Of a stretch of 64,000 nucleotides of DNA, positions 849 to 45,340 are shown in pieces. Origin of the DNA: Candidatus Poribacteria bacterium (lineage in GTDB: Bacteria > Poribacteria > WGA-4E > WGA-3G); NCBI GenBank assembly GCA_965242965.1, contig OZ251518.1, positions 371,680-435,679 on the forward strand, read 5' to 3'. How positions within the stretch are numbered: position 1 is the first letter of the stretch; each line of letters begins with the position of its first letter. A model generated the notes under the pieces. It was given only the letters and a program-made list of their open reading frames with translations. It was not told where the DNA came from and did not search any database. The translations under genes and the position numbers were made by a program.

Positions 849-3800
849 TCATGCAAATTTGATAAACGCCGCGCTGCAAATGACCTTGGGAGGGACACGG
901 ACGGACTGAATAGGTGGCACCTCGTCGCTTGCCAACGCCGACATATTGTAGCGGTGATAGAGGGTTTTCAACGCCGTTAACAACTCTTCGCCCGTGAGTT
1001 CGGCGCGATAGAGGCGGCTGATTTCGCGTTTGAGACGTTCTGTTAAGCGGCCGCGGAACGCTCGTTCAAGCGTCCCTATCGCGCGCTCTTCCGAGGTGCT
1101 GGCCAGCATCCTTAACTCCCGCAAAATGTATCGTTGCGCGCGGGACAACGTCTGTTTTGGAAAGGCGTTTCGCGTCCGACAGACTTCCGCTGCAGACGCT
1201 TTTTGGACTTGGGTGACGCGGGCGTTGTGATGGGCCGGAAGCGGTTTGCCTTGCAATTCGGCATCGCACTGGAGCAAGCGAAGGATTTCGGCAACATCGG
1301 TAGTCCGTTCAACGCCGTTTTCATCAAGCAGGACAAGCCGTCTTTGCTGTTCCTGTTCCCCGCGACAGCAGACGTAAGTGCCTTCTACTTCGGCGGGGAT
1401 GCCGGTGCGAATGCCATCTCTTAACTCGGCGATGCGCTGATATTCCGCTGGGTTTTGCCGTCTCAATTGCCGCAGCAACTCTTCCGCCTCACTTAATCCG
1501 AAGCCCGGTTCTTCGGTTTCTTCTTCCAAGAGGCTGAGTTGTTCGCCGTTCTGTTCATAAATGGCATACATCGCTTTTTCGTTGAGTTGCTCGGTGTTGT
1601 CAAGGATTGCCGCGTCTTCACCGATGGTATCGTGGATTTCCTGAATGCGGCATTGGAGTTTCTCGCGTAGCCCGAGGTTGCGTTCAATTCCCAATTCCGG
1701 CAGGAAATTGAACCCGTGGATTTCGTCAAATTGACTGCCAATCCTATCAATGCGGCCGAAGCGTTGGATTAAGCGCACCGGATTCCAGTGTAAATCGTAG
1801 TTGATGAGCATGCCGCAATCTTGCAGGTTCAATCCCTCGGCGAGGACATCTGTGGCGATGAGCGTCTCTATCTCGGTTTCATCCGACTTCAAGCGATGTT
1901 GATTGGCGTTCGGTGCGAACCGCTCGACGACGCGCCGCTTCCTATCGCTGCCGTGGCTATGGATAACCTCCGTATTCGCTGTGTGCAGGTTTCGGTAGAG
2001 ATAGTTTGCAGTATCAATATATTGTGTGAAGATGAGCCGTTTTTTGCCCTGCAGCGATGGCGATGCCAGCAACGCTTTCAACTTCTGAAGTTTCGCATCC
2101 TGCGCAGGCGTGATATGCTGAACCTTCTCGAAGATCTGGTTTAGAATACCGATGTCGTTCTGAATCGCCGCGCGAAGTTCAGGGACGTTGAAGTCACGGA
2201 TGTCGTATTGCGCGGAGGCTTCGCGGCGTGCTTCCAGAAACTGTGCAATGTCCCGTTCTTCCGGGCTGATGTCGGTTTCATCAGAAGTGCTCGCTTCATA
2301 GAGGATTTTCTGGGCATCGTCACCGGCTGGCACGATCCCATTTTCAAGCGCGCGGAGGAAATCGACGTGGACGTTATAGAACCGGGAGATAGTTGTCTTG
2401 AAGGCGTAAACACTGGATTCAAACCGTTTGAAGAGCAGAATACGCATGAGGCCCCGCAGGTTTCTACCCGCGCTCTGCAAATCCTGATACGGCGGGACAT
2501 TCTGACTCTCCTCCTTCACATAGTGCCAGAGGCCATACCGTGCATAAGTCAACTGCGCAGCGGTATCCGATTTACCGAGGTAATCGCGAATCTGTGCATA
2601 GAGCCCCTGATAGGTATCTTCAATGCTGTATTCAACCGTCTTGAGGGTGCGCTTCGGAAAGAACTGCTTGGTATCGCCGACGCGGACATAGGCGCGGCGT
2701 TCGCGGTTCAGGTAATCGGTGAATTGCGTTGCATCTACGGGTTCATCTGTCTCGGCATCGTAACCGTACCAACGCAAGATGTGGTTTCGCGTTCGGCGGA
2801 TGAGAATGTGTTGTAAAAGCGTCGGGAGGCTCCGTTCCCCGTTCTCAATCAAGCGGAAGTATTCGCGAAGATTTGGCGCGTCCACCGGCAACTGCGTTTC
2901 GTCGTTGAGATGGAAAAGTTTGAGTTGGTGGTAGATATCCCACGCGCTTTTATTGCGCGGTGTCGCTGTGAGGAAGCAGCACTTCTTATCGCCTGTTGTG
3001 AGGAATTCCTGCAAGACGCGGTAGCGTTGCGTAGTGGCATTTCGGAAGTTGTGGCTTTCGTCAACGAGGACAAAATCGCAGTGTCGATAGCGAATATCTT
3101 CAAAGAGCAATTCCCGCGCGTTTTCTTCCCCGCTACTTAAAAGCCCGGTGGAGAGGATTTGCGCGCCGAGGCGGTAGAGGACGTTATAGGATTCCCACAT
3201 GGACATAAGCGCGGGGGGACAGAGGATGAGCGGACGCGCCTGTTCAACTTGTTCAAAGTGCTTGACAATCGCCGAACCGATGTAACTTTTGCCGAGCCCG
3301 ACGACATCGGAGATGAAGACACCGCCGTATGCGTCAATAATCCGAATGGCTTGGGAAACGGCTACCTGCTGAAAATCCGCGAGTTGCGCTGTCAATTCGT
3401 CTGCCGGTGCGATGCGGCTCTCATCCGTTTCTACCCTATCTTTTACCAATTCGTAGAGCGTCTTCATGTAGATGTCATAAGGACGAACAAGCGCGAGGGC
3501 CCAGGAGGTTTGCATCTCGTCCATCAACGCCTTGTCAAAATCCTCTGCTTCGTCCCATAACGCGTCAAACCAGTCGCGGAGTTGCACCTGATTGGCGTTG
3601 CCGTGCACGACGACGTTCAATTCGGTGTTGCTGGTTAACCCTGCCAAGGTAAGATTCGATGAGCCGACGATGGAGATGCCGGATTCATATCCCGCGTTTT
3701 TGCCATAATCGAAAATATACGCCTTGGCGTGGAAACGCTCCTTCGTGTAAACCCTGACTTTCAGTTGTCCGCTAGCAATCATCTCCACGAGAGTTTTGAT

Positions 3801-4160
3801 GAGTTGCGCCGAGTCATCTGTCTGCGGCATGAATTCCATGCAGGCGCGGAGGTTTTGCGCTGTGTCACCGACGCGTGCCTTGCGTTCAACGCCGCGTGAA
3901 TAGCGGCGCGCCGACTGAATCTCGCCTACAGATGCCAATTGTCGATATCCTTCGGCGAGCTGCTCAATCGTCTCGCGTGTACTCGTATTCCCGATGAGGA
4001 GACGGAGCTCGGTGACGTTTTGCAGTGCTTCCGCGATGCCGGTAAAGCCGGTGAGGAAAAAATATCCGACAGCGAAGCGGGCGCGCTCTGTCTCCTCTAA
4101 CATGAGAGTGACGTTGTCGATGAGTTTTTCGGTGCGATTGTCGATAATGTCTTGTGGCAT
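849..4160 (-). CDS. PLD-family nuclease domain fused to an SNF2/SF2 helicase (1103 aa)
   Basis: N-terminal PLD HxK(x4)D(x6)GSxN motif (FHAKAYIFDYG...GSSNLT). Helicase motifs I VGLGKSY, II LVDESHNF, III LTATPRN, V/VI LIATDVLAEGLNL and QRFGRIDRIGS. The ATG lies 10 nt after the stop of the upstream repeat-protein gene, suggesting translational coupling. Confidence 0.8.
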   Translation of the reverse strand: MPQDIIDNRTEKLIDNVTLMLEETERARFAVGYFFLTGFTGIAEALQNVTELRLLIGNTSTRETIEQLAEGYRQLASVGEIQSARRYSRGVERKARVGDTAQNLRACMEFMPQTDDSAQLIKTLVEMIASGQLKVRVYTKERFHAKAYIFDYGKNAGYESGISIVGSSNLTLAGLTSNTELNVVVHGNANQVQLRDWFDALWDEAEDFDKALMDEMQTSWALALVRPYDIYMKTLYELVKDRVETDESRIAPADELTAQLADFQQVAVSQAIRIIDAYGGVFISDVVGLGKSYIGSAIVKHFEQVEQARPLILCPPALMSMWESYNVLYRLGAQILSTGLLSSGEENARELLFEDIRYRHCDFVLVDESHNFRNATTQRYRVLQEFLTTGDKKCCFLTATPRNKSAWDIYHQLKLFHLNDETQLPVDAPNLREYFRLIENGERSLPTLLQHILIRRTRNHILRWYGYDAETDEPVDATQFTDYLNRERRAYVRVGDTKQFFPKRTLKTVEYSIEDTYQGLYAQIRDYLGKSDTAAQLTYARYGLWHYVKEESQNVPPYQDLQSAGRNLRGLMRILLFKRFESSVYAFKTTISRFYNVHVDFLRALENGIVPAGDDAQKILYEASTSDETDISPEERDIAQFLEARREASAQYDIRDFNVPELRAAIQNDIGILNQIFEKVQHITPAQDAKLQKLKALLASPSLQGKKRLIFTQYIDTANYLYRNLHTANTEVIHSHGSDRKRRVVERFAPNANQHRLKSDETEIETLIATDVLAEGLNLQDCGMLINYDLHWNPVRLIQRFGRIDRIGSQFDEIHGFNFLPELGIERNLGLREKLQCRIQEIHDTIGEDAAILDNTEQLNEKAMYAIYEQNGEQLSLLEEETEEPGFGLSEAEELLRQLRRQNPAEYQRIAELRDGIRTGIPAEVEGTYVCCRGEQEQQRRLVLLDENGVERTTDVAEILRLLQCDAELQGKPLPAHHNARVTQVQKASAAEVCRTRNAFPKQTLSRAQRYILRELRMLASTSEERAIGTLERAFRGRLTERLKREISRLYRAELTGEELLTALKTLYHRYNMSALASDEVPPIQSVRVPPKVICSAAFIKFA

Positions 4161-4170
4161 AGAACCTGCC

Positions 4171-6299
4171 TTATTTCAGGAGCTCTAATAGTGCATTTAT
4201 ACCTTTTACGCCGAGCACAGACAAAACTGTTGCAAAAGCGATGCTGACAATTCCGCCAAGGACGATCTTCCAGGGAGTCAGCGCGCCCTTCAATGCCTCA
4301 ACGGATTTTTCAGTGTTCACCAACTTTTCGTTCATATTGTCTAGTTGCACATCCCGTTTTGCGTCGCGTTCGGCACTAGCGGCGAGATGAGCTTCTGTCT
4401 TGGCTTGGAATTTCCCAATCTGCCGGAGGGACTCGTCAATGCTGCCTAAGCGTGCATCGCGTGCAGTGTCGCGTTCCGCACTGGCGGCGAGGAGTGCTTC
4501 TGTCTTGGCTTGGAATTCGCCAATCTGCCGGAGGGATTCGTCAATGCTGCCTAAGCGTGCATCGCGTGCAGTGTCGCGTTCCGCACCGGCGTTGAGGAGT
4601 GCTTCTGTCTTGGCTTGGAATTTCCCAATCTGCCGGAGGGATTCGTCAATGTTGCCTAAGCGTGCATCGCGTGCAGTGTCGCGTTCCGCACCGGCGTTGA
4701 GGAGTGCCTCTGTTTTCGCCTGGAATTTCGCGATGTCATCTAAGCGCGCGTCCCGTTCGGCATCGCGCGCTGCACTGGCATTGAGGAGTGCCTCTGTTTT
4801 CGCTTGGAATTCCCCAATCTGTTGGAATAACTCCCCGAGGTGTTCCAAGCGTGCATCGTGTGCAGCGTCGCGTTCCGCACCGGCGTTGAGGAGTGCCTCT
4901 GTTTTCGCTTGGAATTTCGCGATGTCGTCTAAGCGTGCATCCCATTCCGCGCCGCGTTCTGCACTAGCGGTGAGGAGTGCCTCTGTCTTCGTTTGGAATT
5001 CGCCAATCTGTTGGAACAACCCCTCAAGGTGTTTCAAACGTGCATCGCGCTCGGTATCGCGTTCGGCACTGGCGGTGAGGAGTGCTTCTGTCTTGGCTTG
5101 GAATTCGCCAATCTGCCGGAGGGACTCGTCAATGCGGACGAAGTGTGCATCGCGTTCGGCATCGCGTTCGGCACTGGCGGCGAGATGGGCCTCTGTCTTG
5201 GCTTGGAATTTCGCGATGTCCTCTAAGCGTGCATCCCATTCCGCGCCGCGTGCTGCACTAGCGTTGAGGAGTGCCTCGGTCTTGGTTTGGAATTCGCCAA
5301 TCTGTTGGAACAACCCCTCAAGGTGTTTCAAACGGGCATCGCGCTCGGTATCGCGTTCGGCACTGGCGTGAGGAGTGCTTCTGTCTTTGCTTGGAATTCC
5401 CCAATCTGCCGGAGGGACTCGTCAATGCGACCGAAGTGTGCATCGCGTGCAGCCTCGCGTTCTGCACTCGCGGCGAGATGGGCCTCTGTTTTCGCTTGGA
5501 ATTTCGCGATGTCATCTAAGCGTGCATCCCATTCCGCGCCGCGTGCTGCACTAGCGTTGAGGAGTGCCTCTGTCTTGGCTTGGAATTTCGCGATGTCATC
5601 TAAGCGTGCATCCCGTGCAGCGTCGCGTTCGGCACTGGCGTTGAGGAGTGCCTCGGTCCTGGTTTGGAATTCCCCAATCTGTTGGAACAACCCCTCAAGG
5701 TGTTCCACTCGGGCATCGCGTTCGGTGTCGCGCGCTGCACTGGCGGCGAGATGGGCCTCTGTCTTCACTTGGAATTCTCCGATTTGGCGGAGGGACTCGT
5801 CAATGCGACCGAAGTGTGCATCGCGTTCGGTGTCGCGCGCTGCACTGGCGTTGAGGAGTGCCTCAGTCTTGGTTTGAAATTCGCCAATCTGTTGGAACAA
5901 CCCCTCAAGGTGTTCCACTCGGGCATCGCGTTCGGTGTCGCGCGCTGCACTAGCGGTGAGATGAGCCTCTGTCTGCTCTTGAAACGCCGCTATCCGCTTG
6001 AACAATTCCTCAAGACTATCTAACCGCGTATCGCGTTTGGCATCTAATGCCTCAACTGCAGTCAATCGTGCATGCGTTTGGGTCTGGAGTTCTACAACGC
6101 GTTGGAGCAATTCCTCAGTGCCGTCCAGTCGTGCGTCGCGCGCTGCGTCGCGCTCAGCACTGGCAACGAGATACGCATCTCTTTTGACATCCAGTTCAGC
6201 ACTACGTTCTTGTATCTTCTCGATCCTCTCCAACCGAGGAATGCTTTCGTGACGTGCCGGCTCCGAAGCATTTTTAGGTTGATTATCGGTAGTTTTCAT
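4171..6299 (-). CDS. Tail-anchored coiled-coil protein made of about 17 tandem 35-aa (105-bp) repeats (unit ~RDARLGSIDESLRQIGEFQAKTEALLNASAERDTA). The frame is broken once near 5330-5375 (ORFs 5328..6299 and 4171..5331).
   Basis: 105-bp periodicity is visible in the DNA (e.g. 4441 vs 4546). C-terminal hydrophobic helix WKIVLGGIVSIAFATVLSVLGV. RBS AAGGAGAAACC before the ATG at 6299. One G is missing in the unit at about 5371-5376 relative to other units (cactggcgtgagg vs cactggcggtgagg). Confidence 0.6.
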
Positions 6300-6351
6300 C
6301 GGTTTCTCCTTGCAAATTTATTGTTAAGTATAAGTTTACCATACTTCAATA

Positions 6352-6388
6352 GGTTTGCGCAAGGATTTTTTTACAATCGATGCACCGC
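6352..6388. repeat. 37-bp direct repeat (ggtttgcgcaaggatttttttacaatcgatgcaccgc), left copy. The right copy at 6841..6877 overlaps the 3' end of the Uma2 remnant.
   Basis: Exact 37-bp identity read directly. The two copies bracket the 450-bp REP/MITE cluster. Confidence 0.8.
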
Positions 6389-6475
6389 ACGCGTGTTTCG
6401 CCTGTAATCAAATTAGGGTGTTTCATAAATCCGTGTAGGAGAAACCTCCAGGTCCTGATATCGGCCGCGCAAGCC

Positions 6476-6838
6476 AACGCTCGCGGGGGACAGGCCCCCG
6501 CGCTACGAAAAAAACTTCTCTTAGGTCCGTAGGACCTTAATGTCTATAGCACGCGCGTCTGTGAAGAACCCTAAGGTCCTTTAGGTCCTTAATAGATTTT
6601 GCCTTACCGCGTGGTTTTGATTAAGGACCTAAAGGACCTTGAAAAGGGACCTGCACGTTTTTCTATAGACATATAGGACCTAAAGGACCTAAAACGCGAT
6701 TCTTGATGATGGAGATCGCGGGGGACAGGCCCCCGCGCTACGGGAACATCGAGACCAGGAGGTCTCTCCTACCGGGGAGTCGAGACCGGGAGGGCGCGCC
6801 TACGGAGAGAAATCGAGACCGGGAGGTCTCTCCTACCG
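6476..6838. repeat. REP/MITE cluster: family 1, family 3 (x3), and copy 1 of a composite ~190-bp MITE-like element (6520..6700) with TAGGTCCTTAATGTCTATAG-type terminal inverted repeats and internal AAGGACCTAAAGGACCTT palindromes
   Basis: Direct reading. The same composite element recurs at 29090..29280 and 43105..43295. Confidence 0.8.
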
Positions 6839-6859
6839 GCGGTTTGCGCAAGGATTTTT

Positions 6860-7168
6860 TTACAATCGATGCACCGCGACGAACTCCGGCGTGGCTCCCT
6901 CTTCCCAAACGGCAGACGTCCGCCGGTCTTTTTTGCCAACACCGAAAATAACGAATACGTCAGGGGCAACCGAACGCCTGTTTTCGGGGGTGCCGTAATA
7001 GATGAGCAAATTTCCGGACACATACACATCGGGCGCGTGCCGGAAGTGGTGCTCCAACGTCTGAATAAGGGACATCATTACTCTTCGGTGTTTATCGGTT
7101 TCTGCCATAGGTTTTCCATCTGATTCGGGTAGGGTGAGTGTCGGCGCAGAGCGTATTTGTTGCAACAT
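6860..7168 (-). pseudogene. Uma2-family (DUF820) putative endonuclease, truncated remnant (102 aa; ends where the conserved E-V-L-SP segment should begin)
   Basis: Motifs DGKPMAE...H, LLIYY, APDVFVIFGV, DRRTSAVWEEG, PEFVAV are typical of Uma2/DUF820. The stop lies inside the 37-bp direct repeat. Confidence 0.55.
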
Positions 7169-7276
7169 CGTTCCATCTCCTTAGGTGAAGAAATGCGCGC
7201 ATCCCGCGCAGCATCATTACGATTCATCAGATAGTATACCACATTTTCCTGAAAAATCAAACCTTTTCTTTCGGTT

Positions 7277-7465
7277 TCAACTCCGCGCCTTCTTAAGCCT
7301 AGTTTCAACGAGATTGATAACCGCCTCGTAAACGCCATCACGCTCGCCTTGCGTCAATTCCAAGATGTCAAAGATGACGTTGTCAATCGCGATGCGCGCC
7401 GGTGAAGGCGATAAAACGTCCCATTCTTCGGATGCGAGGAGGGATGCATTTACCCCCCCCCTCAA
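7277..7465 (-). CDS. Probable displaced C-terminal segment of the adjacent methyltransferase (62-aa ORF in an alternate frame, beginning inside the G9 tract)
   Basis: Overlaps the MTase ORF by 83 nt in another frame. Its peptide (…DNVIFDILELTQGERDGVYEAVINLVETRLKKA) looks protein-like, whereas the MTase tail after the tract (KCIPPRIRRMGRFIAFTGAHRD) does not. Confidence 0.4.
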   Translation of the reverse strand: MRGGVNASLLASEEWDVLSPSPARIAIDNVIFDILELTQGERDGVYEAVINLVETRLKKARS

Positions 7466-10400
7466 AATTCATGTCTGTTAAGTTAGGGTTAACACATCGT
7501 AGCTCTCCCAAATCCGAGGTTTGGAGTTCTAACTCCCCATATCCTAGGTTTGAGCGACCGTTCACGTTCACCATCAACTGGAAGAAAGTAGAATTGAGGG
7601 AGAAACAGAGAGGTATCCTCAACTCAAGTGCGCATTGGAGTTCCATAAACTTGCCAGTCACATAACACCCCTCACTGGCATACAATGTTTTTGCCGTTGA
7701 ACGCATCCGGTGCGCAAAACTCATATACGGAGGCGGGCGTTTGCCCACATCATACCATCGCCGTCTAGATCGGATGCTCGGCCGCTGAGGCAGTTTCTGG
7801 CTTTCACCCGATTCAATGTATGCCAACGCAGCGGTGCCTCTTAAGGCTTCTCTCTCCTTTTGACACAGAAAGAGTTGATGTGGTGATTGTTCGGGGCGAA
7901 TCAACAGGCTCTCAGTGACTCTCCTGTCGTTGACAATCGGGTGTAAAAACTCTGGCTCAATATGCCACGCCGAAATCGTCTCCGCATCAAGGATGAAAAA
8001 CTGGTTTGCCCCGCTCATGATTCCTCGCCGAATCTGAGCGATGTCGCCGACACGGACGAGTTTATCCGAGCCTTTTTCTAGTAATGTCCAATAGATGTCG
8101 GGAGCGCGCAGATACTTCGCGCCCCATTTGTTTCCGGTATACTTCGTCTTTGCATCCATTCCGGCGGCTAAAAGTGCATCCTGCGAGAGAAGGTGAATTC
8201 GATATTCAGGCAGAGCATTCCGCTGGATTTCGGTTTCGATTTCGTAAAAGATGACAGGATCCAAAATAGCCTCAAACGGTTCGGTAAAGTTAACAAACCG
8301 CACAATGTCTTGCAAACCTGATGCGCTATCTCTAACCGGGGCGGAGATGAGACAAATAGCAGTGTTGATATTTACGGCTTTGAAGGAACGTCGTGCCGCG
8401 TTGTCCAAAACCAGTTTGAGATGACACCGCTTAAGGAGGAATTCCTGCAAATCTTTGCCGAAGTCCGCATCTAACCACGATCTGGATGTGATAGTGCAGA
8501 AGGTTCCTTTGGGATTTAGCAACGAGAGTCCGTGAAAGTAGAAGTAGACGTAGAGATCGCTGTTGCCATCTAGTTTATGCTTCACGGCAGACGCGGGGTT
8601 TTCCTTCGTATCCTTCTCCGGTTGATACCCGAAGAATGCAGGGAACGCCTGATAAACGGAACGCGCCAACTTGGCTTTATACGCCTTCGTGTTAGCGGGT
8701 GTAACCGCGTCTCGGGCTAGCGTCGGGTCTGTGAGTTTTTTCGTTGAAACGTAAGGCGGGTTTTCTATCACGATGTCAAAACCACCATACTGTTTGAAAA
8801 TCTCAACGAAGGCAATGTCCCACACGAAAGGTGGAACTGCATCTGACGTAAGGGCATGCTGGGCACGTTGGAGGTTGTTGAGATTCGCCTGTTGAAGTGC
8901 CAACTCCTGTTGCTTTTGCCGAGTTGCAAGATCTAATTGCGCTGCCTGGGGTTTCTCAATCCCGTCAAGCGTCAGTTGTTCAGCCGGATCTTCAAGCCAT
9001 TCCTGTAAACCTGCAATGCCTTCCAAAATTTGGCTTTCCTGCGACTGCAGTGTCTCCCGAAAGAGCAAGTTCTCGGCGCGTTGCACATCCGCTTTCTCAC
9101 GATATTTCCGCTCACGTTCGTTGTGATAAAACTTCAGTTTCTCTGTCTGGTGGAATACGATTTTGCGCGAGATGTCAGTCGGCACGCCGCTGCCCAACGC
9201 GCGCGTCTGCGCGAGGTTCATCCCACCGATGTCCTGCACCAGACTATCGCCGTGACGAATGTTAAACGAAAAATCAGGCAGCAAGGGCTCCTCGCGAATC
9301 TGCAGTTCCGCGGTGGAAATCTCTGCCTCAATGATGAGCGCGAGCCAGAGGCGTAACTCGGCAACTTTGCATGCCCACGGCATCACGTCTACGCCGTAGA
9401 GATTCTTGCCGATAATCGCCTTGCGGCGTTCAAACCTTGAGGTAACAGATGCACCGAGGTGCCGTGCGGCGCGTTCCCCCAGGTCATCGAGAATATGGAG
9501 CATGCCGACGAGAAACGAACCGCTGCCACACGCCGGATCCAACACCGTGAGACGGTTCAGATGCGTCGCGATATCACCCCACTGCGCGGCGAGGTGGGCA
9601 TCGGCATCTTCCTTCTCTGTTTCATCGAACGTAAAGAGTGCGGCGTAAAATTGATGCTTATGCGCCTCACCGATGTGATTTGCGAGGTTATCTACGAGCG
9701 CGAGACGGCACATCATATCTATCTCGATGCGCGGCGTGTAGAAGATGCCGGCATCGCCGCGTTCATCGGTTTCAGCGGAGACACTGACGAGACTCTCGTA
9801 GACTTTGCCGATCATCTCGGGGTCTACGGCGACTTCCTGTTCCAGCGGGGTATCCTCGGCGATGGTGAAGTTATATCCCTCGAAGAACTGGAAGATGTCG
9901 CGCCATAAATCATCGGGAATCGTGGTGGCATACTCGGTATCCCATTCGTTTTCTCGGAATAAGCCGCCGTTGAGATAGGGCGCGTGCTGAAGCGTTTCGC
10001 GGATGTTGTCAGGAAAGTAACGATATCCGCCGTGAAACTTCTGATTGAAAGCGGCGAAGAAGAGGACGTTGAGCCACTTTGCCACGAAGGTATCCGCTGG
10101 TTGCGTTGCGTTTTGATACGCCTGCCAAAACGTGTGCAGGAAATCGGTGTCGTTTCCGAGCCACCGTTTTCGCTGGATGAAATAGAGGAAGAGGCAGCGG
10201 CTGAGGAATTGTTGGGCTGCATCGTGCGCCCACTTTTTATCAGCGGTTTGCGTTTCCAACTCGGTTTGGAGGTTTCTGAAGACGCGCTGATAGTCGGCGA
10301 AAAACTGCGCTGTCACGGCATCGACATCGAAGGCGGCATCGTGCTGTTTGGTAATTTGCAGAGGTGTCAGCAGCTCTGGATTTGGGAAGAGGCTCTCCTG

Positions 10401-10886
10401 TTGGCCGTCAATGGCTATCGTCGCCAGATCGAGCATTGCGATACGTTCGGCGGCGGTGCGGAGTTTTTCATCGGGCGCGACAGTGATGCGCCGGAATCGG
10501 TGGCGTGCCTTGTGTTTCTTGCTTGCCTCGCGGACGAGTGTGACGTTGACGAAGTGCCAGTGGTCTTGCGCAATATTGCTAAAGATGTAGAGCGCGTGCG
10601 GGAAGCGCGTCTGCAAGTGCGCGATGACGCGGCGTTCGGCGGTCTTGCGGGGTGTTTCGGTATTGAGGCGCGCGTATATGATGTGAAAGTCGTTATCCCT
10701 ACCCCCGGCGGCAAAGCGTCGCGGTGCCTCGGCGAGGCAGTCGGCGATGGCTTCCGGGATGTTCTCAATCGGTTCATCGATGCGGTGATAATTGAGTTCT
10801 ACCCAAAAGAGTTCGCGCAGGGGTTCGATGCCGCGGAGGTTTTGTAGCAGAGTTAAGATGCGTTCGGTGTTTTCGGGTGTTGGCAT
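7383..10886 (-). CDS. Large gamma-class N6-adenine DNA methyltransferase, 1167 aa (Type IIG / BREX PglX / DISARM DrmMI-like). The true C-terminus is probably in the 7277..7465 frame.
   Basis: Motif X AGIFYTPR, motif I VLDPACGSGSFLV, motif IV IENPPY. A long N-terminal region precedes the MTase core. The C(9) run at 7453..7461 sits at the frame junction. Confidence 0.75.
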   Translation of the reverse strand: MPTPENTERILTLLQNLRGIEPLRELFWVELNYHRIDEPIENIPEAIADCLAEAPRRFAAGGRDNDFHIIYARLNTETPRKTAERRVIAHLQTRFPHALYIFSNIAQDHWHFVNVTLVREASKKHKARHRFRRITVAPDEKLRTAAERIAMLDLATIAIDGQQESLFPNPELLTPLQITKQHDAAFDVDAVTAQFFADYQRVFRNLQTELETQTADKKWAHDAAQQFLSRCLFLYFIQRKRWLGNDTDFLHTFWQAYQNATQPADTFVAKWLNVLFFAAFNQKFHGGYRYFPDNIRETLQHAPYLNGGLFRENEWDTEYATTIPDDLWRDIFQFFEGYNFTIAEDTPLEQEVAVDPEMIGKVYESLVSVSAETDERGDAGIFYTPRIEIDMMCRLALVDNLANHIGEAHKHQFYAALFTFDETEKEDADAHLAAQWGDIATHLNRLTVLDPACGSGSFLVGMLHILDDLGERAARHLGASVTSRFERRKAIIGKNLYGVDVMPWACKVAELRLWLALIIEAEISTAELQIREEPLLPDFSFNIRHGDSLVQDIGGMNLAQTRALGSGVPTDISRKIVFHQTEKLKFYHNERERKYREKADVQRAENLLFRETLQSQESQILEGIAGLQEWLEDPAEQLTLDGIEKPQAAQLDLATRQKQQELALQQANLNNLQRAQHALTSDAVPPFVWDIAFVEIFKQYGGFDIVIENPPYVSTKKLTDPTLARDAVTPANTKAYKAKLARSVYQAFPAFFGYQPEKDTKENPASAVKHKLDGNSDLYVYFYFHGLSLLNPKGTFCTITSRSWLDADFGKDLQEFLLKRCHLKLVLDNAARRSFKAVNINTAICLISAPVRDSASGLQDIVRFVNFTEPFEAILDPVIFYEIETEIQRNALPEYRIHLLSQDALLAAGMDAKTKYTGNKWGAKYLRAPDIYWTLLEKGSDKLVRVGDIAQIRRGIMSGANQFFILDAETISAWHIEPEFLHPIVNDRRVTESLLIRPEQSPHQLFLCQKEREALRGTAALAYIESGESQKLPQRPSIRSRRRWYDVGKRPPPYMSFAHRMRSTAKTLYASEGCYVTGKFMELQCALELRIPLCFSLNSTFFQLMVNVNGRSNLGYGELELQTSDLGELRCVNPNLTDMNFEGGGKCIPPRIRRMGRFIAFTGAHRD

Positions 10887-10961
10887 GCCGTTGTCTCCGA
10901 TTCTTAAGGTTTACGATATTATAGGAGAAAAGCGGATTTTAAGTCAAGGAATTTCATGATC

Positions 10962-11140
10962 GGCATGGCGAGGGACAGGCCCTCGCCCTACGGGAAAACG
11001 GACCGTTCCGGATACCGTAGCGCGGGGGCCTGTCCCCCGCGAGCGTTCAGTAGACCGGAGCCTGGCGAGGGACAGGCCCTCGCCCTACGGTGTTCGATGC
11101 GGTTTCAGCATGGCGAGGGACAGGCCCTCGCCCTACGGGG
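10962..11140. repeat. REP cluster (family 1, four or more hairpins)
   Basis: GGCGAGGGACAGGCCCTCGCCCTACGG units read directly. Confidence 0.85.
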
Positions 11141-11142
11141 AA

Positions 11143-12333
11143 TTAGAAGACCTCGCCCATCGATTTTTCGACGATGTTCACCGCTTCTTCAACATGCCCT
11201 GTGTTGATATTGAGCGGTGGCAGGAACCGAAGGACATAATCGTTGGTGCAGATGGTGACGAGCCCGTTTTCGATGCACTTGGCGGCGAGAGGTTTCGCGT
11301 CCACTTCCATCACCATGCCGCGCAGCAACCCTTTCCCGCGCACTTCCTTGACAGGATATTTCCCCTTGAGTTCCAGCAACCCGCCGGCGAGGTAATTCCC
11401 CATTTTCACGGCGTTGCTGGCGAGATTCTCGTCCAAGATGGTCTGCACGGTTGCGCGAGCCGCTGCTGTGACAAGCGGGTTTCCGCCGAACGTCGCTGCG
11501 TGTGTGCCGGGGACGAAGCTGGCGGCTATCTCACGTTTCGCGAGCATTGCGCCGATAGGGACACCGCTGCCGAGTGCCTTCGCCATCGTGATGACATCGG
11601 GGACAACGCCGTAACTCTGGTAGCCGAAGAAGGTGCCGAGTCGCCCCATCGCCGTTTGCACCTCGTCGAAAATGAGGAGCAGGTTATGTTTATCGCACAG
11701 TTCGCGGAGCCCCTGCAGGTAACCGTCGCTAGGGATGTTGACTCCACCTTCGGACTGAATCGGCTCTACCAATATCGCGCAGGTTTTCTCGTTGATAGCG
11801 GATTCGGTTGCGGGCAAATCATCAAACGGCACGTAGGTGAAGCCTTCCAGCATCGGTTCAAACCCGACGTGGTATTTCGTCTGCGCCGTGGCGGTGATGG
11901 TTGCCATCGTTCGCCCGTGGAACGAATTCTCCATCGTGATGATTTCGTAGGCATCCGGTCTGCCGCTGTCTTTGGCGAATTTGCGCGCCAGTTTAATGGC
12001 TGCTTCGTTCGCCTCCGCGCCGCTGTTGCAGAAGAACACCTGGTCCATGTCGGAATTCTCCACTAACATCTTCGCCAATTCTGCCTGCGGTTGGATGTAG
12101 TAGAGGTTGGAGGTGTGCAGCAGTTTGCCTGCCTGCTCCTGAATAGCGGCGACGACGTTCGGATGGCAGTGCCCGAGTCCGTTGACGGCGAGTCCGCCGA
12201 GGAAATCGAGATACTGCTTGCCTTCGGCATCCCAGAGATAGGGTCCTTCGCCTTTGACGAAAGCGAGGTTTCTGTCGCCGTAGGTATTAATGATGTATTC
12301 TGTCGCCATCGTTTTGATTTCAGCGGTTGTCAT
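11143..12333 (-). CDS. argD: Class III (acetylornithine/ArgD-like) PLP aminotransferase, 397 aa. The ORF-caller extension to 12741 is not coding.
   Basis: MTTAEIK start with RBS AGGAGA. LGHCHP, VFFCNSGAEANEAAIKLARK and DEVQTAMGRLG motifs typical of ArgD-type aminotransferases. Confidence 0.7.
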   Translation of the reverse strand: MTTAEIKTMATEYIINTYGDRNLAFVKGEGPYLWDAEGKQYLDFLGGLAVNGLGHCHPNVVAAIQEQAGKLLHTSNLYYIQPQAELAKMLVENSDMDQVFFCNSGAEANEAAIKLARKFAKDSGRPDAYEIITMENSFHGRTMATITATAQTKYHVGFEPMLEGFTYVPFDDLPATESAINEKTCAILVEPIQSEGGVNIPSDGYLQGLRELCDKHNLLLIFDEVQTAMGRLGTFFGYQSYGVVPDVITMAKALGSGVPIGAMLAKREIAASFVPGTHAATFGGNPLVTAAARATVQTILDENLASNAVKMGNYLAGGLLELKGKYPVKEVRGKGLLRGMVMEVDAKPLAAKCIENGLVTICTNDYVLRFLPPLNINTGHVEEAVNIVEKSMGEVF

Positions 12334-12375
12334 GAAAATTTCTCCTTCGGGACCTGCAGGTCCCGTTGATAAAAA

Positions 12376-12410
12376 ATGTGCGGGTAGGCGCGCGTGGAAA
12401 GCGCGCCCAC
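12376..12410. terminator. GC-rich hairpin CGGGTAGGCGCGC-GTGGAAA-GCGCGCCCAC. It belongs to a small hairpin family also seen at 17720..17745 and 37515..37545.
   Basis: Read directly. Lies between the argD-like start and the dehydratase stop. No T-run, so its terminator role is uncertain. Confidence 0.3.
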
Positions 12411-12424
12411 GGGCTGAATCAGTT

Positions 12425-13561
12425 CTACCAGTTGGTATAGGCACCGTCGTCACGGTGATAGCCAGTCGGCGGGCCATATTCTTGGGTTGAGACGTTCGTG
12501 ATCGCGTCTTCGTTGAATTCAATGCCGAGCCCCGGTGCTTCGGGCGGCAAGAGATGTCCCGATTCAAACGGCACTTGCACCGGAAATACATCGGTGAGAT
12601 CGGACATCGGTGCGCGCGGCAATTCTTGCACGCCGACGAGTGAAGAGGACAGACAGAGATGCAGACACGCCGCTGCGGATACTGGCCCCAACGGGTTGTG
12701 CGGTGCGAGGTGGATGTAGTGCGTTTCACACCAGCCTGCAACTTTCTTCGCTTCTGTTAACCCGCCGACGATGCACACGTCAACGCGGCAGTAATCGAGC
12801 AGTTCTTCCTCGATTACCTCTCGGAATGCCCACTTGCTGTCGAATTGTTCACCGATGGCGAGTGGCACCGAGGTTTGCTGTCGTATGCGCCGGAGACTAG
12901 CGGGGTTTTCGCTGCGAAGCGGGTCCTCGATGAAAAACGGGTGGTAAGTTTCCACCTTATTGCAGAATTCGAGACTATCCACCGGATCGAGGCGGGTATG
13001 CACATCGATAAGGATTTCCACATCGTCTCCGAGTGCTTGCCGCACGGCTTGCGCCTGCGCGAGTCCGTGTTGCACGGCGCGTCGCGGTTCAAAGTTGCCG
13101 GCGGCACCGGTATCATCGGCGAGTCCCCATCGGACGAATTTCCAGCCGGCGGCGTGGGTTTGGCGGCAGTTTTCGACGAGTGCGTCAATTGAGCCGCCGC
13201 CGTTGTGCGGATAGCAGGCGACTTTATCGCGTGTGCGCCCGCCGAGAAGTTCATAGACAGGGACGTTCAGGGCTTTGCCTTTGATGTCCCAAAGGGCAAT
13301 ATCGACGGCACTGACAGCGGCGGATTGAACGACACCGCCGGGGAAGAAGCCGCCTCGGAACATCACCTGCCACAGGTGCTCAATCCGAAACGGATCTGCG
13401 CCGATGAGGAACGGTTCAAACGAGCGGACAACTTCTGCGAGGGCGAGTGAGCGTCGTCTTAAGCCGCCTTCGCCGACTCCGTAAATGCCGGCATCCGTTT
13501 CGACTTTGACGAAGAAATGTCCGGATGCCGAGACAAAGGATTTGACGTTGGTAATTTTCAT
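12425..13561 (-). CDS. Enolase-superfamily dehydratase (D-galactonate/D-mannonate dehydratase-like)
   Basis: N-terminus MKITNVKSF...FVKVETDAGIYGVGEG resembles DgoD/ManD. Enolase-superfamily metal-ligand region IDVHTRL...FIEDP. Confidence 0.65.
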   Translation of the reverse strand: MKITNVKSFVSASGHFFVKVETDAGIYGVGEGGLRRRSLALAEVVRSFEPFLIGADPFRIEHLWQVMFRGGFFPGGVVQSAAVSAVDIALWDIKGKALNVPVYELLGGRTRDKVACYPHNGGGSIDALVENCRQTHAAGWKFVRWGLADDTGAAGNFEPRRAVQHGLAQAQAVRQALGDDVEILIDVHTRLDPVDSLEFCNKVETYHPFFIEDPLRSENPASLRRIRQQTSVPLAIGEQFDSKWAFREVIEEELLDYCRVDVCIVGGLTEAKKVAGWCETHYIHLAPHNPLGPVSAAACLHLCLSSSLVGVQELPRAPMSDLTDVFPVQVPFESGHLLPPEAPGLGIEFNEDAITNVSTQEYGPPTGYHRDDGAYTNW

Positions 13562-13603
13562 CAATTTTCCTCCTTAGTTAATCAGTGTGTTTCATAAATC
13601 GTT

Positions 13604-13790
13604 CAACGGCGCGGGGATAGGCTCCCGCGCTACGATAAAAAACGCCATCCCTCACCGTAGGGCGAGGGCCTGTCCCTCGCCATGCGTTTTGCTGTCAGAC
13701 CGCCTCACCCCTGTAGGTCAGGATCGCCTGATCCTGACCTGTTTGTGATTAGGCGATCACAAACTACAGAGGTGGGCCCGATGCGCGCCT
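13604..13790. repeat. REP cluster (family 1 plus family 2 double hairpin 13706..13767)
   Basis: Direct reading. Confidence 0.85.
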
Positions 13791-13834: not shown

Positions 13835-14563
13835 TTAATCAGTATGTGCGAATTGCGGTGCCGTTTCCAATTCCGATGCTTTGGTTTGCGTGTTGACATC
13901 TTCACATCCCGGTGGTTGTGCGCCGCGTATCCAGGGTTTCGGGCGTTTTTCCCATGGCAGTTTCGTGAAGCCGAGCCATCGGCAGAGGCGCGGGATATGT
14001 CCAGGGCGCGCAATACGGAGATGCTCAATCTCCGGCACGATGATAGGCACTACTTCCCAGCGTCCATCGGGATAGGCGGCATTTTCCCGGTGTCGCGCGA
14101 TGGGGTTAGGTTTCGGTATGTCGGTGTTTTTGAGCACCAAGGTTTCTATGTGTCGTTCGATGGCGAGTGCTGCTTTTGCATGGACTTCCATTGCGGTTTT
14201 GCCGTGTGCGGTGCAGCCGGGCAAATCTGGAACGCTGAGCCGGTAATGCCTCCGCCGTTTGCGGGTTATCAAGACCGGATAGTGGCGTAGTTCGGGCATC
14301 GTTATCGTCACGGTGTCCCACTGCAGTGCATCGGCATATCCCGGGTCGTTCTGATGGTAGGCGATGTCCTGGGGTTCAGGAATCGGATCATCTTCAAGCA
14401 TCATGCTTTCAAGATGTCCTTCGATTGCTTCCACGGCGCGCGTCAGCACCTGCTCTACGGTGTCTGCTGCAGTAATGCACCCTGGCAAATCGGGGACGAC
14501 GATGCCGTAGATGCTGCCCGGGTCTTTGAAAATCGCAACAGGATATTGCATAAAAGTTTTCAT
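13835..14563 (-). CDS. hicB: HicB-family antitoxin with two tandem HicB/UPF0150 domains (copy 1)
   Basis: YPVAIFKDPGSIYGIVVPDLPGC..A.TVEQVLTRAVEAIEGHLE repeated twice within the protein. Three paralogous copies in tandem. Confidence 0.75.
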   Translation of the reverse strand: MKTFMQYPVAIFKDPGSIYGIVVPDLPGCITAADTVEQVLTRAVEAIEGHLESMMLEDDPIPEPQDIAYHQNDPGYADALQWDTVTITMPELRHYPVLITRKRRRHYRLSVPDLPGCTAHGKTAMEVHAKAALAIERHIETLVLKNTDIPKPNPIARHRENAAYPDGRWEVVPIIVPEIEHLRIARPGHIPRLCRWLGFTKLPWEKRPKPWIRGAQPPGCEDVNTQTKASELETAPQFAHTD

Positions 14564-14875: not shown

Positions 14876-15589
14876 TTAAGCCTTGGCGTGTTCCGGTAGC
14901 ATCCCTTCGTTTTCGGCGGTGCTGTCGGTTTCCGGTGGTTGTGCGCCGCGTATCCAGGGTTTCGGGCGTTTCTCCCATGGCAGTTTCGTGAACCCGAGCC
15001 ATCGACAGAGGCGCGGGATACGGCCAGGGCGCGCAATACGGAGATGCTCGATCTCCGGCACGATGATAGGCACCACTTCCCAATGTCCATCGGGACATGC
15101 AGCATTTCCTCGGTGTTGCGCGATGGGGTTGGGTTTCGGTATGTCCCTATTTTTGAGTATTCGTGCTTCCATGTGTCGTTCAATGGCGAGTGCTGCTTTT
15201 GCATGGACTTCCATTGCGGTTTTGCCACGCGCGGTACAGTCGGGCAAATCTGGGACGCTGAGCCGATAGTGCTTCCGCCGTTTGCGGGTTATCAAGACAG
15301 GATAGTGGCGCAGTTCTGGAAACGCTACCGTTACCTCCTCCCACTGCCCCCCAGCATATTCTGGATATGCCGGATTGTTCTGATGGTAGGCGATGTCCTT
15401 AGGTTCGGGAATCGCATCTCCATCAATTAACATGCCGCCGAGATGACATTTAATCGCTTCCACGGCCTGGGTCAGAACGTCCTCGACTGTATCGCCCCAG
15501 GTATAACACCCAGGTAAGTCTGGAACAATTACGCCGTAGTCGCTATCCGGGTCTTTGTGGATGACAATCGGATACCTAAAGATTTTCAT
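14876..15589 (-). CDS. hicB: HicB-family antitoxin, tandem-domain (copy 2)
   Basis: Paralog of 13835..14563. Confidence 0.75.
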   Translation of the reverse strand: MKIFRYPIVIHKDPDSDYGVIVPDLPGCYTWGDTVEDVLTQAVEAIKCHLGGMLIDGDAIPEPKDIAYHQNNPAYPEYAGGQWEEVTVAFPELRHYPVLITRKRRKHYRLSVPDLPDCTARGKTAMEVHAKAALAIERHMEARILKNRDIPKPNPIAQHRGNAACPDGHWEVVPIIVPEIEHLRIARPGRIPRLCRWLGFTKLPWEKRPKPWIRGAQPPETDSTAENEGMLPEHAKA

Positions 15590-15869: not shown

Positions 15870-16568
15870 TTAAGCCTTGACGTGTTCCGGTAGCATCGCT
15901 TCGTTTTCGGCGGTGCTGTCGGTTTCCGGTGGTTGTGCGCCGCGTATCCAGGGTTTTGGGCGTTTTTCCCATGGCAGTTTCGTGAACCCGAGCCATCGGC
16001 AGAGGCGCGGGATACGCCCGGGACGCGCGATACGGAGATGCTCAATCTCCGGCACGATGATAGGCACCACTTCCCAATGTCCATCGGAATAGGCGGGATT
16101 TCCCCGGTGTTGCGCGATGGGTTTGGGTTTCGGTATGTCGGTGTTTTTGAGCACCAAGGCTTCCATGTGTCGTTCAATGGCGAGTGCTGCTTTTGCATGG
16201 ACTTCCGTTGCGGTTTTGCCGTGCGCGGTGCAGCCGGGCAAGTCCGGGACGCTGAGTTGATAGTGCTTCCGCCGTTTGCGGGTTATCAAGACCGGATAGT
16301 GGCGCAGTTCGGGTAAGGTTATGGTAACCCAATCCCACCGTTGGAAGTCGGCATAGTGCGGATTGTTTTGATGAGCGGCGATGTCCTGGGGTTCAGGAAT
16401 CAGGTCTCCATCAATCAACATGCCGCCGAGATGACATTTGATGGCTTCCACGGCTTGGATAAGCACTTCCTCAACGGTATCCGCTGCGGTAATGCATCCG
16501 GGTAAGTCCGGAACGAGGATGCAGTAATCACTATCCGGGTCTTTGTCAATCACGACAGGGTAACGCAT
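15870..16568 (-). CDS. hicB: HicB-family antitoxin, tandem-domain (copy 3)
   Basis: Paralog. RBS GGGAGGA upstream. Confidence 0.75.
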   Translation of the reverse strand: MRYPVVIDKDPDSDYCILVPDLPGCITAADTVEEVLIQAVEAIKCHLGGMLIDGDLIPEPQDIAAHQNNPHYADFQRWDWVTITLPELRHYPVLITRKRRKHYQLSVPDLPGCTAHGKTATEVHAKAALAIERHMEALVLKNTDIPKPKPIAQHRGNPAYSDGHWEVVPIIVPEIEHLRIARPGRIPRLCRWLGFTKLPWEKRPKPWIRGAQPPETDSTAENEAMLPEHVKA

Positions 16569-19039: not shown

Positions 19040-19320
19040 GAGGTATTGCATTGAGACCAGGAGGTCTCTTCCCTACCGGAAGGCATCGGGCCCATCTCTG
19101 TAGTTCGGGATCGCCTGATCCCGAACGGTTCAGGATCGGGCGATCCTGACCTACAGAGGTGAGGCGGTCTGACTCCAAAACGCATGGCGAGGGACAGGCC
19201 CTCGCCCTACGGTGAAGGGGGGGGCTTTCTGCCGCCGCGGCCCCGGTAGGCGCGCCGCCCTATTGCATCGAGACCGGAAGGTCTCGCCTACTGAGGCGGA
19301 TATAAGCGCGAATTCGTTTC
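19040..19320. repeat. REP cluster (families 1, 2, 3)
   Basis: Direct reading. Confidence 0.85.
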
Positions 19321-45039: not shown

Positions 45040-45340
45040 TCTTGGTAGGCGAGACCGGAAGGGTTCTCCTACCGGAAGGTGTCGGACCCACCTCTGTAGT
45101 TCGGGAGCGCGATGCGCCTGCCTCAGCACAGATTGCGGAGGTTGATGTCGGGCCCACCTCTGTAGTTCGGGAGCGCCTGCTCCCGAACGGGTCAGGATCA
45201 GGCGATCCTGACCTACAGAGCCTGGCGATCGCAGCATGGCGAGGGACAGGCCCTCGCCCTACGTGAAGGGACGGCGTTTTTTATCGTAGCGCGGGAGCCC
45301 TCGGATGCCACACGCGCATGGCGAGAGGGTCCCCCCCCGA
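45040..45340. repeat. REP cluster (families 3, 2, 1)
   Basis: Direct reading. Confidence 0.85.

Follow-up and report, generated by a model that had tools for sequence, protein, structure and literature searches.

We analyzed a 64-kb stretch of the chromosome of a Candidatus Poribacteria sponge symbiont (hereafter, the window), in which four genes, all on the minus strand, occupy positions 849-10886. They comprise an N6-adenine methylase gene, a remnant of a Uma2 nuclease gene, a gene for a tail-anchored repeat protein, and a gene encoding a phospholipase D (PLD)-type HKD nuclease fused to an SNF2 ATPase (PLD-SNF2 or HKD-SNF2). The locus is probably one chromosomal instance of an ATP-dependent restriction-modification (R-M) module that is widespread but unnamed and consists of two genes, for the methylase and PLD-SNF2, with a poly-G switch in the methylase gene and a cargo slot between the two. 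Of 47 PLD-SNF2 loci from four phyla, 38 have an Eco57I-type methylase gene upstream and on the same strand. The pairing persists at approximately 30% identity on plasmid pSYSX of Synechocystis and on plasmids of Thermococcus and Halorussus, in either gene order. Since it is kept across phyla and plasmids, the conserved unit consists of two genes, methylase and HKD-SNF2. The module is widespread and mis-annotated, and it is not unique to the window.

An earlier note on this DNA had interpreted the four genes as a composite defense island. Its observation was largely right and is partly confirmed here: all four components are present on the minus strand, but the methylase and repeat-protein genes are frame-broken in the window, and both frameshifts had been overlooked. 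Three of the four genes are damaged (methylase, repeat gene, and Uma2), and PLD-SNF2 is intact. The view that methylase and PLD-SNF2 form a linked, defense-type pair distinct from canonical DISARM holds, given 38/47 loci, the distant plasmid homologues, and the absence of DrmA/B. Uma2 and the repeat protein, by contrast, do not qualify as core parts, and one system of four components was an overstatement, as these two occupy a variable cargo slot. The features of the locus are as follows:

849-4160, minus strand: PLD-SNF2 fusion gene, 1103 amino acids (aa), intact, with the Pfam domains PLDc_2, SNF2-rel_dom, and Helicase_C.
4161-4170, minus strand: spacer GGCAGGTTCT, 10 nt, between the stop codon (TAA) of the repeat-protein gene and the ATG of PLD-SNF2.
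4171-6299, minus strand: gene for the tail-anchored coiled-coil repeat protein, present as two open reading frames (ORFs), 5328-6299 (323 aa) and 4171-5331 (386 aa).
6352-6877: identical 37-nt direct repeats (6352-6388 and 6841-6877), spaced 489 nt, enclosing repetitive extragenic palindromes (REPs) and an element resembling a miniature inverted-repeat transposable element (MITE).
6860-7168, minus strand: Uma2 (PD-(D/E)XK, DUF820) remnant, the first 97 codons of a 248-258 aa gene, fused to the 37-nt element.
7277-10886, minus strand: Type IIG-like gamma-class N6-adenine methylase gene, ~1196 codons if in frame.
7453-7461, minus strand: G9 homopolymer (C9 on the plus strand) inside the methylase gene, out of frame; putative phase-variation tract.
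10918-10947, minus strand: promoter-like site TTGACT-18-TATAAT just upstream of the methylase start, 11/12 matches, a consensus match only.

The comparison set comprised about 60 related loci (L numbers), and the ORFs of 47 PLD-SNF2 loci were extracted, compared, and clustered. A one-genome-per-species scan found 46 loci with PLD-SNF2 relatives, located in Poribacteria, many Nostocales and other cyanobacteria, Anaerolineae/Chloroflexota, and one WOR-3. The nearest loci belong to Candidatus Poribacteria metagenome-assembled genomes, whose PLD-SNF2 proteins are 97%, 93%, 90%, and 83% identical to that of the window (97% for L001 and 90% for L006). The families that recur in the 47 loci are the methylase and, as cargo in the gap, Uma2 (18 loci) and PIN (17 loci) only. 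Several of the loci lacking a methylase gene run into contig ends and show C-terminal methylase fragments. On Synechocystis pSYSX, the gene order is helicase, small ORF, VapC, and 1100-aa methylase; the Thermococcus plasmid has the methylase and, further on, AbiEii and the helicase; and the Halorussus plasmid has methylase, small ORF, and helicase. The plasmid helicases match the same PADLOC model (PDLC01075) as PLD-SNF2 of the window.

The 1103-aa fusion of a PLD nuclease with an SNF2 helicase was correctly described in the earlier note, as both the Pfam domains and the catalytic motifs are intact in ORF 849-4160. The HxK...D...GSxN motif (HAKAYIFD...GSSN) is encoded at 3654-3731, Walker A (GLGKS) at 3285-3299, DESH at 3051-3062, and QRxGRxxR (QRFGRIDR) at 1743-1766. 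The C-terminal region of ~240 aa is more variable and without domain assignment, and a Pfam search of PLD-SNF2 detected no modified-base reader domain. Residues 4-860 match the PADLOC model PDLC01075 'C3a139 HKD+Snf2' (1.8e-83), whose source is a 4-member cluster, 'HKD+Snf2', located beside type III CRISPR cassettes, with no function or system assigned (PMC6546367). Homologues run to thousands among the matches listed, and each of the best 120 listed is nearly full-length and aligns at 56-97% identity to 64-100% of the query. No record identical to the PLD-SNF2 protein of the window turned up in an exact look-up, and sequence searches of the PDB gave generic SNF2/DEAD and methylase-core matches only. 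PLD-SNF2 is predicted to be the restriction (motor-nuclease) subunit.

The methylase is composed of an N-terminal nuclease-fold domain, a helical spacer, an Eco57I/MmeI core, a variable target-recognition half, and a conserved C-terminal tail. Previously, it had been read as a 1167-aa gamma-class adenine methyltransferase with a long N-terminus; the family is confirmed, but the ORF at 7383-10886 is a truncated reading that ends out of frame behind the G9 tract. Translation in another frame gives the true C-terminus (...WDVLSPSPARIAIDNVIFDILELTQGERDGVYEAVINLVETRLKKARS), which ends at 7277. The 1167-aa ORF matches Pfam Eco57I (5e-28), MmeI_Mtase, N6_Mtase, and MmeI_hel as well as PADLOC REase_MTase_IIG (1e-50), and the motifs DPACGSG (9519-9539) and NPPY (8751-8762) are both intact. 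As in Type IIG/IIL enzymes, a gamma-class core, a spacer, and a target-recognition domain reside in one chain, and the N-terminal domain shares its nuclease fold with DrdV and BpuSI. The competent N-terminal PD-(D/E)XK nuclease of that class was not found in the methylase, and alignments of the N-domain revealed no invariant Asp or Lys. Judged from its sequence, this domain appears to have lost its catalytic residues. The methylases of the window and L001 share 82-99% identity over residues 1-600 and 53-72% over residues 601-1142, which is the mosaic expected when target-recognition halves are exchanged. Scanning the locus for terminators and promoters yielded nothing informative except the promoter-like site upstream of the methylase. 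A separate case is L007 (6618-10000), where the methylase beside an intact PLD-SNF2 has no match to residues ~446-820 of its orthologues. Approximately 870 nt of unrelated sequence replaces the missing part, and the stop codon abuts the nuclease start; internal replacement or decay is possible.

Among the characterized systems, MANTIS (Gao_RL; BR type 2, MtsA-D) is the closest. It shares with the window an HKD/PLD nuclease N-terminal to an SF2/SNF2-like ATPase (MtsD) and a separate N6-adenine methylase, that is, the same architecture in a different family. PLD-SNF2 scored 153.7 bits against NCBIfam NF042964 (anti-phage PLD protein; cut-off 1100), which we take, as a guess, to be the Gao_RL/MANTIS effector model. 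In contrast to MANTIS, the methylase here is of the Eco57I/MmeI type with a nuclease-fold N-domain. The HKD-SF2 fusion MtsD builds its one PLD site by dimerizing, the methylase MtsC recognizes the target and hemimethylates asymmetric sites of 6 bp, and MANTIS needs the DUF499 ATPase MtsA and the DUF3780/3870 protein MtsB (bioRxiv 10.64898/2026.09.23.753747; PMC12839542). Neither DUF499 nor DUF3780/3870 was among the conserved families of the 47 loci or their Pfam-annotated neighbors. DISARM class 1 (DrmA, DrmB, DrmC, DrmD, DrmMI) likewise has an SNF2 ATPase, a PLD nuclease, and an Eco57I-like methylase, and partial matches to the DrmD and DrmMI profiles were obtained. Here, however, PLD and SNF2 are joined in one polypeptide, and DrmA and DrmB (DUF1998) are absent: they were not found in the flanking genes, and no further conserved family occurs in the 47 loci. 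The DrmD matches cover the helicase core only, with 141.7 bits for NF038317 (cut-off 610) and 77.4 bits for NF038318 (cut-off 950). Without DrmA/B, DUF499, and DUF3780, the pair is neither DISARM nor MANTIS. Membership in canonical DISARM, BREX, MANTIS, or Zorya was rejected because the defining genes are missing.

Type III R-M (Mod/Res) and Type ISP (LlaGI) systems also combine a methylase carrying a target-recognition domain with an SF2 motor/nuclease, and Type III mod genes are classic carriers of phase-variable repeat tracts. The module differs from them in its N-terminal HKD/PLD domain instead of PD-(D/E)XK, its SNF2-type motor, and its 1200-aa Type IIG-like methylase instead of a beta-class Mod. 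With the Type IIG/IIL enzymes MmeI, BpuSI, DrdV, and Eco57I, the methylase shares the nuclease-fold N-domain, helical spacer, gamma methylase, target-recognition domain, and C-terminal helices, but the D...(D/E)XK catalytic residues are not conserved and there is a syntenic, dedicated nuclease-helicase gene. SauUSI (Type IV, PLD-SF2-TRD, the last a target-recognition domain) likewise has a PLD nuclease and an SF2 ATPase, a likeness noted for MtsD (bioRxiv 10.64898/2026.09.23.753747). SauUSI is autonomous and modification-dependent, whereas PLD-SNF2 has a conserved methylase partner and no detectable modified-base reader. A counterpart of the pair is found on pSYSX of Synechocystis PCC 6803, where slr6050 (M.Ssp6803IV) and a 'helicase-related protein' are paired in the same way with a VapC module between the genes. 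The pSYSX helicase matches PDLC01075 (2.9e-53) and the N-terminal half of the methylase aligns at 25% identity; the differences are a helicase identity of only 29% and the reversed gene order. We identified the pSYSX methylase as slr6050 from the replicon and its 1100-aa length. To this enzyme, GAm6AGGC has been tentatively assigned, and its knock-out never segregated (PMC6105098). This failure may reflect post-segregational killing by the neighboring HKD-SNF2 protein, a methylase-helicase link that was not drawn in PMC6105098.

The G9 tract lies inside the methylase ORF and sets its reading frame; in the window, where the out-of-frame state was also checked by hand, G8 or G11 would give the full-length methylase. 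Its length differs between alleles (ON/OFF):

L001: G9, out of frame (checked by hand).
L003: G9, out of frame (checked by hand).
L008: G9, out of frame (checked by hand).
L056: G9, out of frame (checked by hand).
L063: G9, tract sequence identical to L056 and out of frame by that identity.
L061: G9, 1184 aa, frame state not worked out.
L009: G10, in frame.
L054: GGG at the tract site, full length.
L055: GGGAGGG at the tract site, full length.
L064: GGGGGTGG at the tract site, full length.
L050: tract absent, full length.

The in-frame length is G8 or G11 in the window, L001, L003, and L056 and G10 in L008. Because it differs, a uniform one-base miscall cannot explain the pattern; in the window, L001, L003, and L056, adding a single undercalled base does not bring the gene back into frame. 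Among the 20 closest matches (at least 71% identity), 11 methylases measure 1190-1204 aa and nine 1141-1189 aa. We compared the 147-nt tail behind the tract pairwise among six G9 alleles and found 248 of 382 differences (65%) at third positions of the ON frame, against 77 at first and 57 at second positions (134 together), the pairs being phylogenetically non-independent. The bias was seen in every pair of G9 alleles, and the excess indicates that the tail is translated often enough to stay under purifying selection. Furthermore, the tract is the only G/C run of at least 9 nt in the 64 kb, and the lineages sharing it at this one site have methylases of only 55-75% identity in that region. Taken from the alleles at hand, these data suggest that the poly-G is a contingency tract switching the methylase between full-length and truncated forms. 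Restriction in Type III systems needs the Mod subunit. By analogy, a methylase in the OFF state would silence restriction safely, which would account for an intact nuclease beside an out-of-frame methylase. The next-longest G/C runs of the window, G8 at 19217-19224 and C8 at 45331-45338, are both intergenic and lie beside REP palindromes.

Poribacteria genomes carry, at another conserved site, an orphan methylase of the same family without a nuclease gene. Its neighborhood reads acetyltransferase, 189-aa ORF, methylase, TP_0789-like gene, GHMP kinase, and L25. Two copies with a G9 tract are the following:

L061, 8001-11555: orphan methylase on the genome/scaffold of L003.
L063, 8001-11519: orphan methylase on the genome/scaffold of L054.

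The two methylase copies of a genome are inverted relative to each other, ~62 kb apart on the L054 scaffold and 1.2 Mb apart in the L003 genome. Within a genome, they share 94-100% DNA identity over most of the first 1.8 kb (89-100% per 300-nt block) and 57-72% in most of the variable half. Orthologues from different genomes share 85-92% in the 5' half. The 5' halves are thus closer within a genome than between orthologues, which indicates that they are homogenized within each genome. In L055 (methylase at 8001-11594) and L056 (8001-11519), the genes upstream of the methylase are those of the nuclease-linked locus (three HicB genes, MR_MLE, and aminotransferase), and the genes downstream are those of the orphan locus (TP_0789-like gene, GHMP kinase, and L25). 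These junctions reflect either an inversion through the shared segment or a misassembly at the 1.8-kb repeat.

The space between the methylase and nuclease genes is a variable cargo slot. It is empty, with gaps of 1-210 nt, in L007, L008, L022, L037, and L038. Cyanobacterial gaps contain Uma2 and/or PIN genes, and those of the plasmids AbiEii and VapC. In L001, only MITE and REP debris follows Uma2, and the 1.8-kb gap between Uma2 and PLD-SNF2 is filled by tandem copies of the MITE-like element. The truncated Uma2 nuclease in the slot of the window had been recognized as a remnant before: it corresponds to residues 1-97 of 248-258 aa orthologues, with 92-97% identity to the intact proteins over this range, and a full PD-(D/E)XK Uma2 domain is not present in the window. 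The intact orthologue of L054 matches Pfam Uma2 (PF05685) at 4.1e-20. The upstream copy of the 37-nt repeat truncates Uma2, and the downstream copy precedes the repeat-protein gene; in L001 and L064, the 37-nt element follows an intact Uma2 gene.

Further observations concern the contents of the slot. Uma2, PIN/VapC, and AbiEii recur in the gaps of L011-L044 (e.g., L015, 8743-9312 and 9554-9997), L051 (10478-11111), and L052 (5953-6969). Uma2 is far denser in these methylase/HKD-SNF2 gaps than in the 20-kb flanks, in loci that are related by descent. The gaps of L009 (8176-9590, three tandem copies on the opposite strand) and L050 (9599-9949) encode small proteins of 116-183 aa with a DxDKIRLIV motif, one transmembrane helix, and a C-terminal IETLTQEIETLKQQRI heptad tail. 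These small membrane proteins were rejected as relatives of the repeat protein since no similarity was found. The MITE-like element of ~250 nt has inverted repeats AAGGTCCTTTAGGTCCTTAAT / ATTAAGGACCTAAAGGACCTT and the motif TATAGACAT; the window contains one copy (6500-6700), and L001 several in tandem (8200-9900).

The repeat protein is a rare, Poribacteria-restricted, tail-anchored coiled coil with an unstable repeat number. In the window, a 1-nt deletion near 5368 (ctcaCgcc vs. ctcaCCgcc in a sister repeat) splits its gene. With one base restored, the protein has 709 aa. A 70-aa head is followed by 18 repeats whose lengths are multiples of seven (35 aa in 13 of them and 28 aa in five) and, at the C-terminus, by a hydrophobic transmembrane helix (positions 4207-4272). 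The earlier description as a membrane-anchored protein of ~17 tandem 35-aa repeats was therefore roughly right, except that these do not form one ORF in the window. An AlphaFold2 model of the C-terminal ORF comprises two very long helices, and we estimate that the helices, fully extended, would measure roughly 95-110 nm. The forms encountered include a 41-aa stub, a 117-aa form, and versions with ~18 and ~21 repeats. The gene is intact in L003/L005 (814 aa), and in L054 it is collapsed by short-read assembly. In L057/L058, a divergent 236-aa homologue (~37% identity by BLAST; 44% in the HMMER match) lies between remnants of the methylase and PLD-SNF2 genes. These loci and the window are the only ones in which the repeat protein was found at the module. 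None of the cyanobacterial, Chloroflexota, or WOR-3 loci has it, nor do the closest relatives, L001 and L006. In L064, a 41-aa stub followed by REP elements is all that is left of the gene, while the methylase (in frame), Uma2, and PLD-SNF2 are intact.

A HMMER search of 1.84 billion representative proteins gave 17 matches to the repeat protein, four of them below 1e-10, including a 117-aa minimal version and tail-anchored homologues of 209-236 aa. Two homologues are encoded beside aroQ or NusB with no R-M gene nearby. A word-index search with the 814-aa protein returned nothing at E ≤ 1e-5, probably because it was swamped by low-complexity candidates, and two metagenome scans with repeat-protein peptide patterns revealed no relative. 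Pfam, NCBIfam, and PADLOC matches (YqfI, Tropomyosin, DruC, darobactin, and others) stayed below cut-off and were rejected as repeat/coiled-coil artefacts. On this sequence evidence, the repeat protein appears to be a dispensable passenger of the module rather than a core partner. Decay of the island is complete in L057 (3899-6230; JGI 3300006541): the methylase is reduced to residues ~101-137 plus the last ~100, PLD-SNF2 to its first 78 codons, and the 236-aa tail-anchored coiled-coil gene between them is intact. L057 has a second, frameshifted coiled-coil paralogue directly upstream of aroQ, and in L059 a coiled-coil gene stands beside aroQ, without R-M remnants.

Beyond the observed gene content, synteny, motifs, frameshifts, selection signature, and distribution, we infer the enzymatic roles, the dependence of restriction on the methylase, and phase switching. 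By analogy, the module most likely works like MANTIS, DISARM, and Type III R-M. The methylase would recognize a short asymmetric site, (hemi)methylate the host DNA, and direct restriction as Mod does in Type III systems. At unmethylated sites, it would recruit or license an HKD-SNF2 dimer, which would use ATP to translocate, loop, or remodel the DNA and cleave it at a single composite PLD site formed on dimerization, as in MtsD and SauUSI. Slippage in the poly-G would turn the whole system on or off, and G9 in the window would correspond to an OFF or truncated state. The variable half of the methylase may be exchanged between strains and with the orphan paralogue, which would alter specificity. 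Genes dropped into the slot between the two genes would ride on the operon; accessory genes inside Type I hsd loci provide a parallel. In the window, the slot would hold a decayed Uma2, REP/MITE debris, and the repeat protein, which would be co-transcribed with the nuclease gene but not required.

Several points weigh against this reading. L018, L035, and L044 have enough upstream sequence and no methylase, and for this family member we infer, by comparison with related systems, that restriction depends on the methylase. The poly-G interpretation rests on assemblies, and every out-of-frame allele is exactly G9; homopolymer errors, or a stably truncated but functional methylase, may be responsible, and the pairs used in the codon-position test are not independent. 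As to the repeat gene, its 10-nt junction with the nuclease gene is kept in three lineages (window, L003, and L054), and, where present at the module, it is always directly upstream of PLD-SNF2. It is intact in L057, where both R-M genes have decayed, implying some function of its own. A lineage-specific accessory role with a link to the nuclease in Poribacteria is possible but unsupported.

The short junction underlies the model of the earlier note, in which translation of the repeat protein and PLD-SNF2 is coupled and all four genes form one composite system; the repeat protein would then be an integral partner of the nuclease, for example a membrane tether, a ruler, or a Zorya-like sensor. 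The spacing given in that note is correct, as PLD-SNF2 starts exactly 10 nt past the repeat-protein stop, and no promoter-like site was found between the two genes. The homologue in L057/L058 occupies the same place between methylase and PLD-SNF2 remnants at a different chromosomal site. Nevertheless, we regard such a partnership as unlikely. More than 40 loci with a nuclease of this family have no repeat protein, among them L001 (97%) and L006 (90%); the protein is a dead 41-aa stub beside an intact methylase and nuclease in L064, is frameshifted in the window, and has homologues by aroQ or NusB away from R-M genes. The AGGTTCTATG context before the PLD-SNF2 start is also present in relatives without the repeat gene. 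The likeness to Zorya consists of a weak match to the ZorD helicase domain (2.4e-9) and, in idea, a long membrane-anchored helical element. The repeat protein differs in having a single C-terminal helix, no similarity to ZorA, and a distribution that makes it dispensable across the family. The sensor role is unsupported: no ZorA/ZorB-like motor genes are present in the locus and the repeat protein has no PADLOC Zor matches; its best PADLOC hit, to DruC at E ~0.004, is a coiled-coil artefact. A more elaborate version seems a long shot to us: in one Poribacteria lineage, the module would have recruited a hypervariable-repeat, tail-anchored protein that holds the nuclease-motor in place at the inner membrane, the point of phage DNA entry, or that serves as a decoy or sensor, and which together with the poly-G switch and the exchangeable half would make a multi-layer variable defense locus.

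Slightly less probable still is a chance neighborhood of a self-contained Type IIG/IIL methylase and an autonomous, SauUSI-like Type IV PLD-SNF2 sharing a defense hot spot. PLD-SF2 enzymes such as SauUSI are indeed Type IV (bioRxiv 10.64898/2026.09.23.753747). Both our methylase and slr6050 fall under PADLOC REase_MTase_IIG models, the N-domain has the DrdV/BpuSI nuclease fold, the C-terminal ~240 aa of PLD-SNF2 are variable and unassigned, and the orphan paralogue exists without a nuclease. Independence is difficult to reconcile with a synteny that extends to four bacterial phyla and to archaeal plasmids, whichever gene comes first, and with the lack of an invariant catalytic Asp or Lys in the N-domain. 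An OFF methylase beside an intact nuclease, as found in several genomes, would be tolerable only if the nuclease needs the methylase. We give equally little credence to a decaying, non-functional locus, in which the frameshifts and the truncated Uma2 represent pseudogenization or assembly errors at repeats and homopolymers without regulatory meaning. Damage to three of the four genes and the complete decay in L057 fit that explanation; moreover, the repeat-gene frameshift borders a higher-order repeat of 94% identity, a setting prone to assembly errors, and short-read assemblies collapse the gene, as in L054. In the window, however, PLD-SNF2 is fully intact, and so is the methylase apart from the tract. 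The purifying-selection signature in the tail of the G9 alleles is clear, the tract recurs at one site in methylases of 55-75% identity, and undercalling by one base restores no frame in the window, L001, L003, and L056.

The methylase/HKD-SNF2 pair is not listed as a system in the defense catalogues that we searched. In current annotation, its two members appear separately, as a 'Type IIG enzyme' and a 'helicase-related protein'. Treating the pair as a minimal relative of MANTIS, DISARM, and Type III systems, with just two genes, would correct many entries and explain why slr6050 is undeletable in Synechocystis. The module would also offer a simpler model for a methylase that hands an unmethylated site to a PLD-motor nuclease without a DUF499 ATPase. 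The out-of-frame tract and the homogenized paralogue pair suggest phase-variable epigenetic switching in uncultivated sponge symbionts; we know of no report of such switching in Poribacteria, although no literature search was aimed at it. The most interesting features are the apparent poly-G phase switch, the homogenized paralogue pair, and the fast-evolving tail-anchored repeat protein, itself a rare oddity.

Two families of 19-nt GC-rich palindromes, GCGAGGGCCTGTCCCTCGC and GCGGGGGCCTGTCCCCCGC, occur in either orientation, mostly in intergenic clusters (271-760, 6470-6840, 10960-11150, 13600-13690, and onward to 59620). With 65 copies in 64 kb, or ~1 per kb, where none is expected by chance, they are REP-like. 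The dense mobile palindromes previously seen flanking the cluster are real, but they are genome-wide and not specific to it. The idea that they mark a mobile island was rejected because this density holds across the whole window.

In Poribacteria, the locus is flanked by aminotransferase, MR_MLE, and three HicB-like genes on one side and by TGT and an iron-containing alcohol dehydrogenase (Fe-ADH) gene on the other. The three tandem genes at 13835-14563, 14876-15589, and 15870-16568 (minus strand) each encode two HicB-like antitoxin domains (E 1e-38 to 1e-41). No HicA toxin ORF was noticed, and this triple array is conserved upstream of the methylase in L054-L056. The class-III aminotransferase ORF at 11143-12741 (minus strand) extends 136 codons upstream of a conserved 396-aa protein, reaching a TTG start and crossing REP elements, and translation probably begins at the ATG at 12333.

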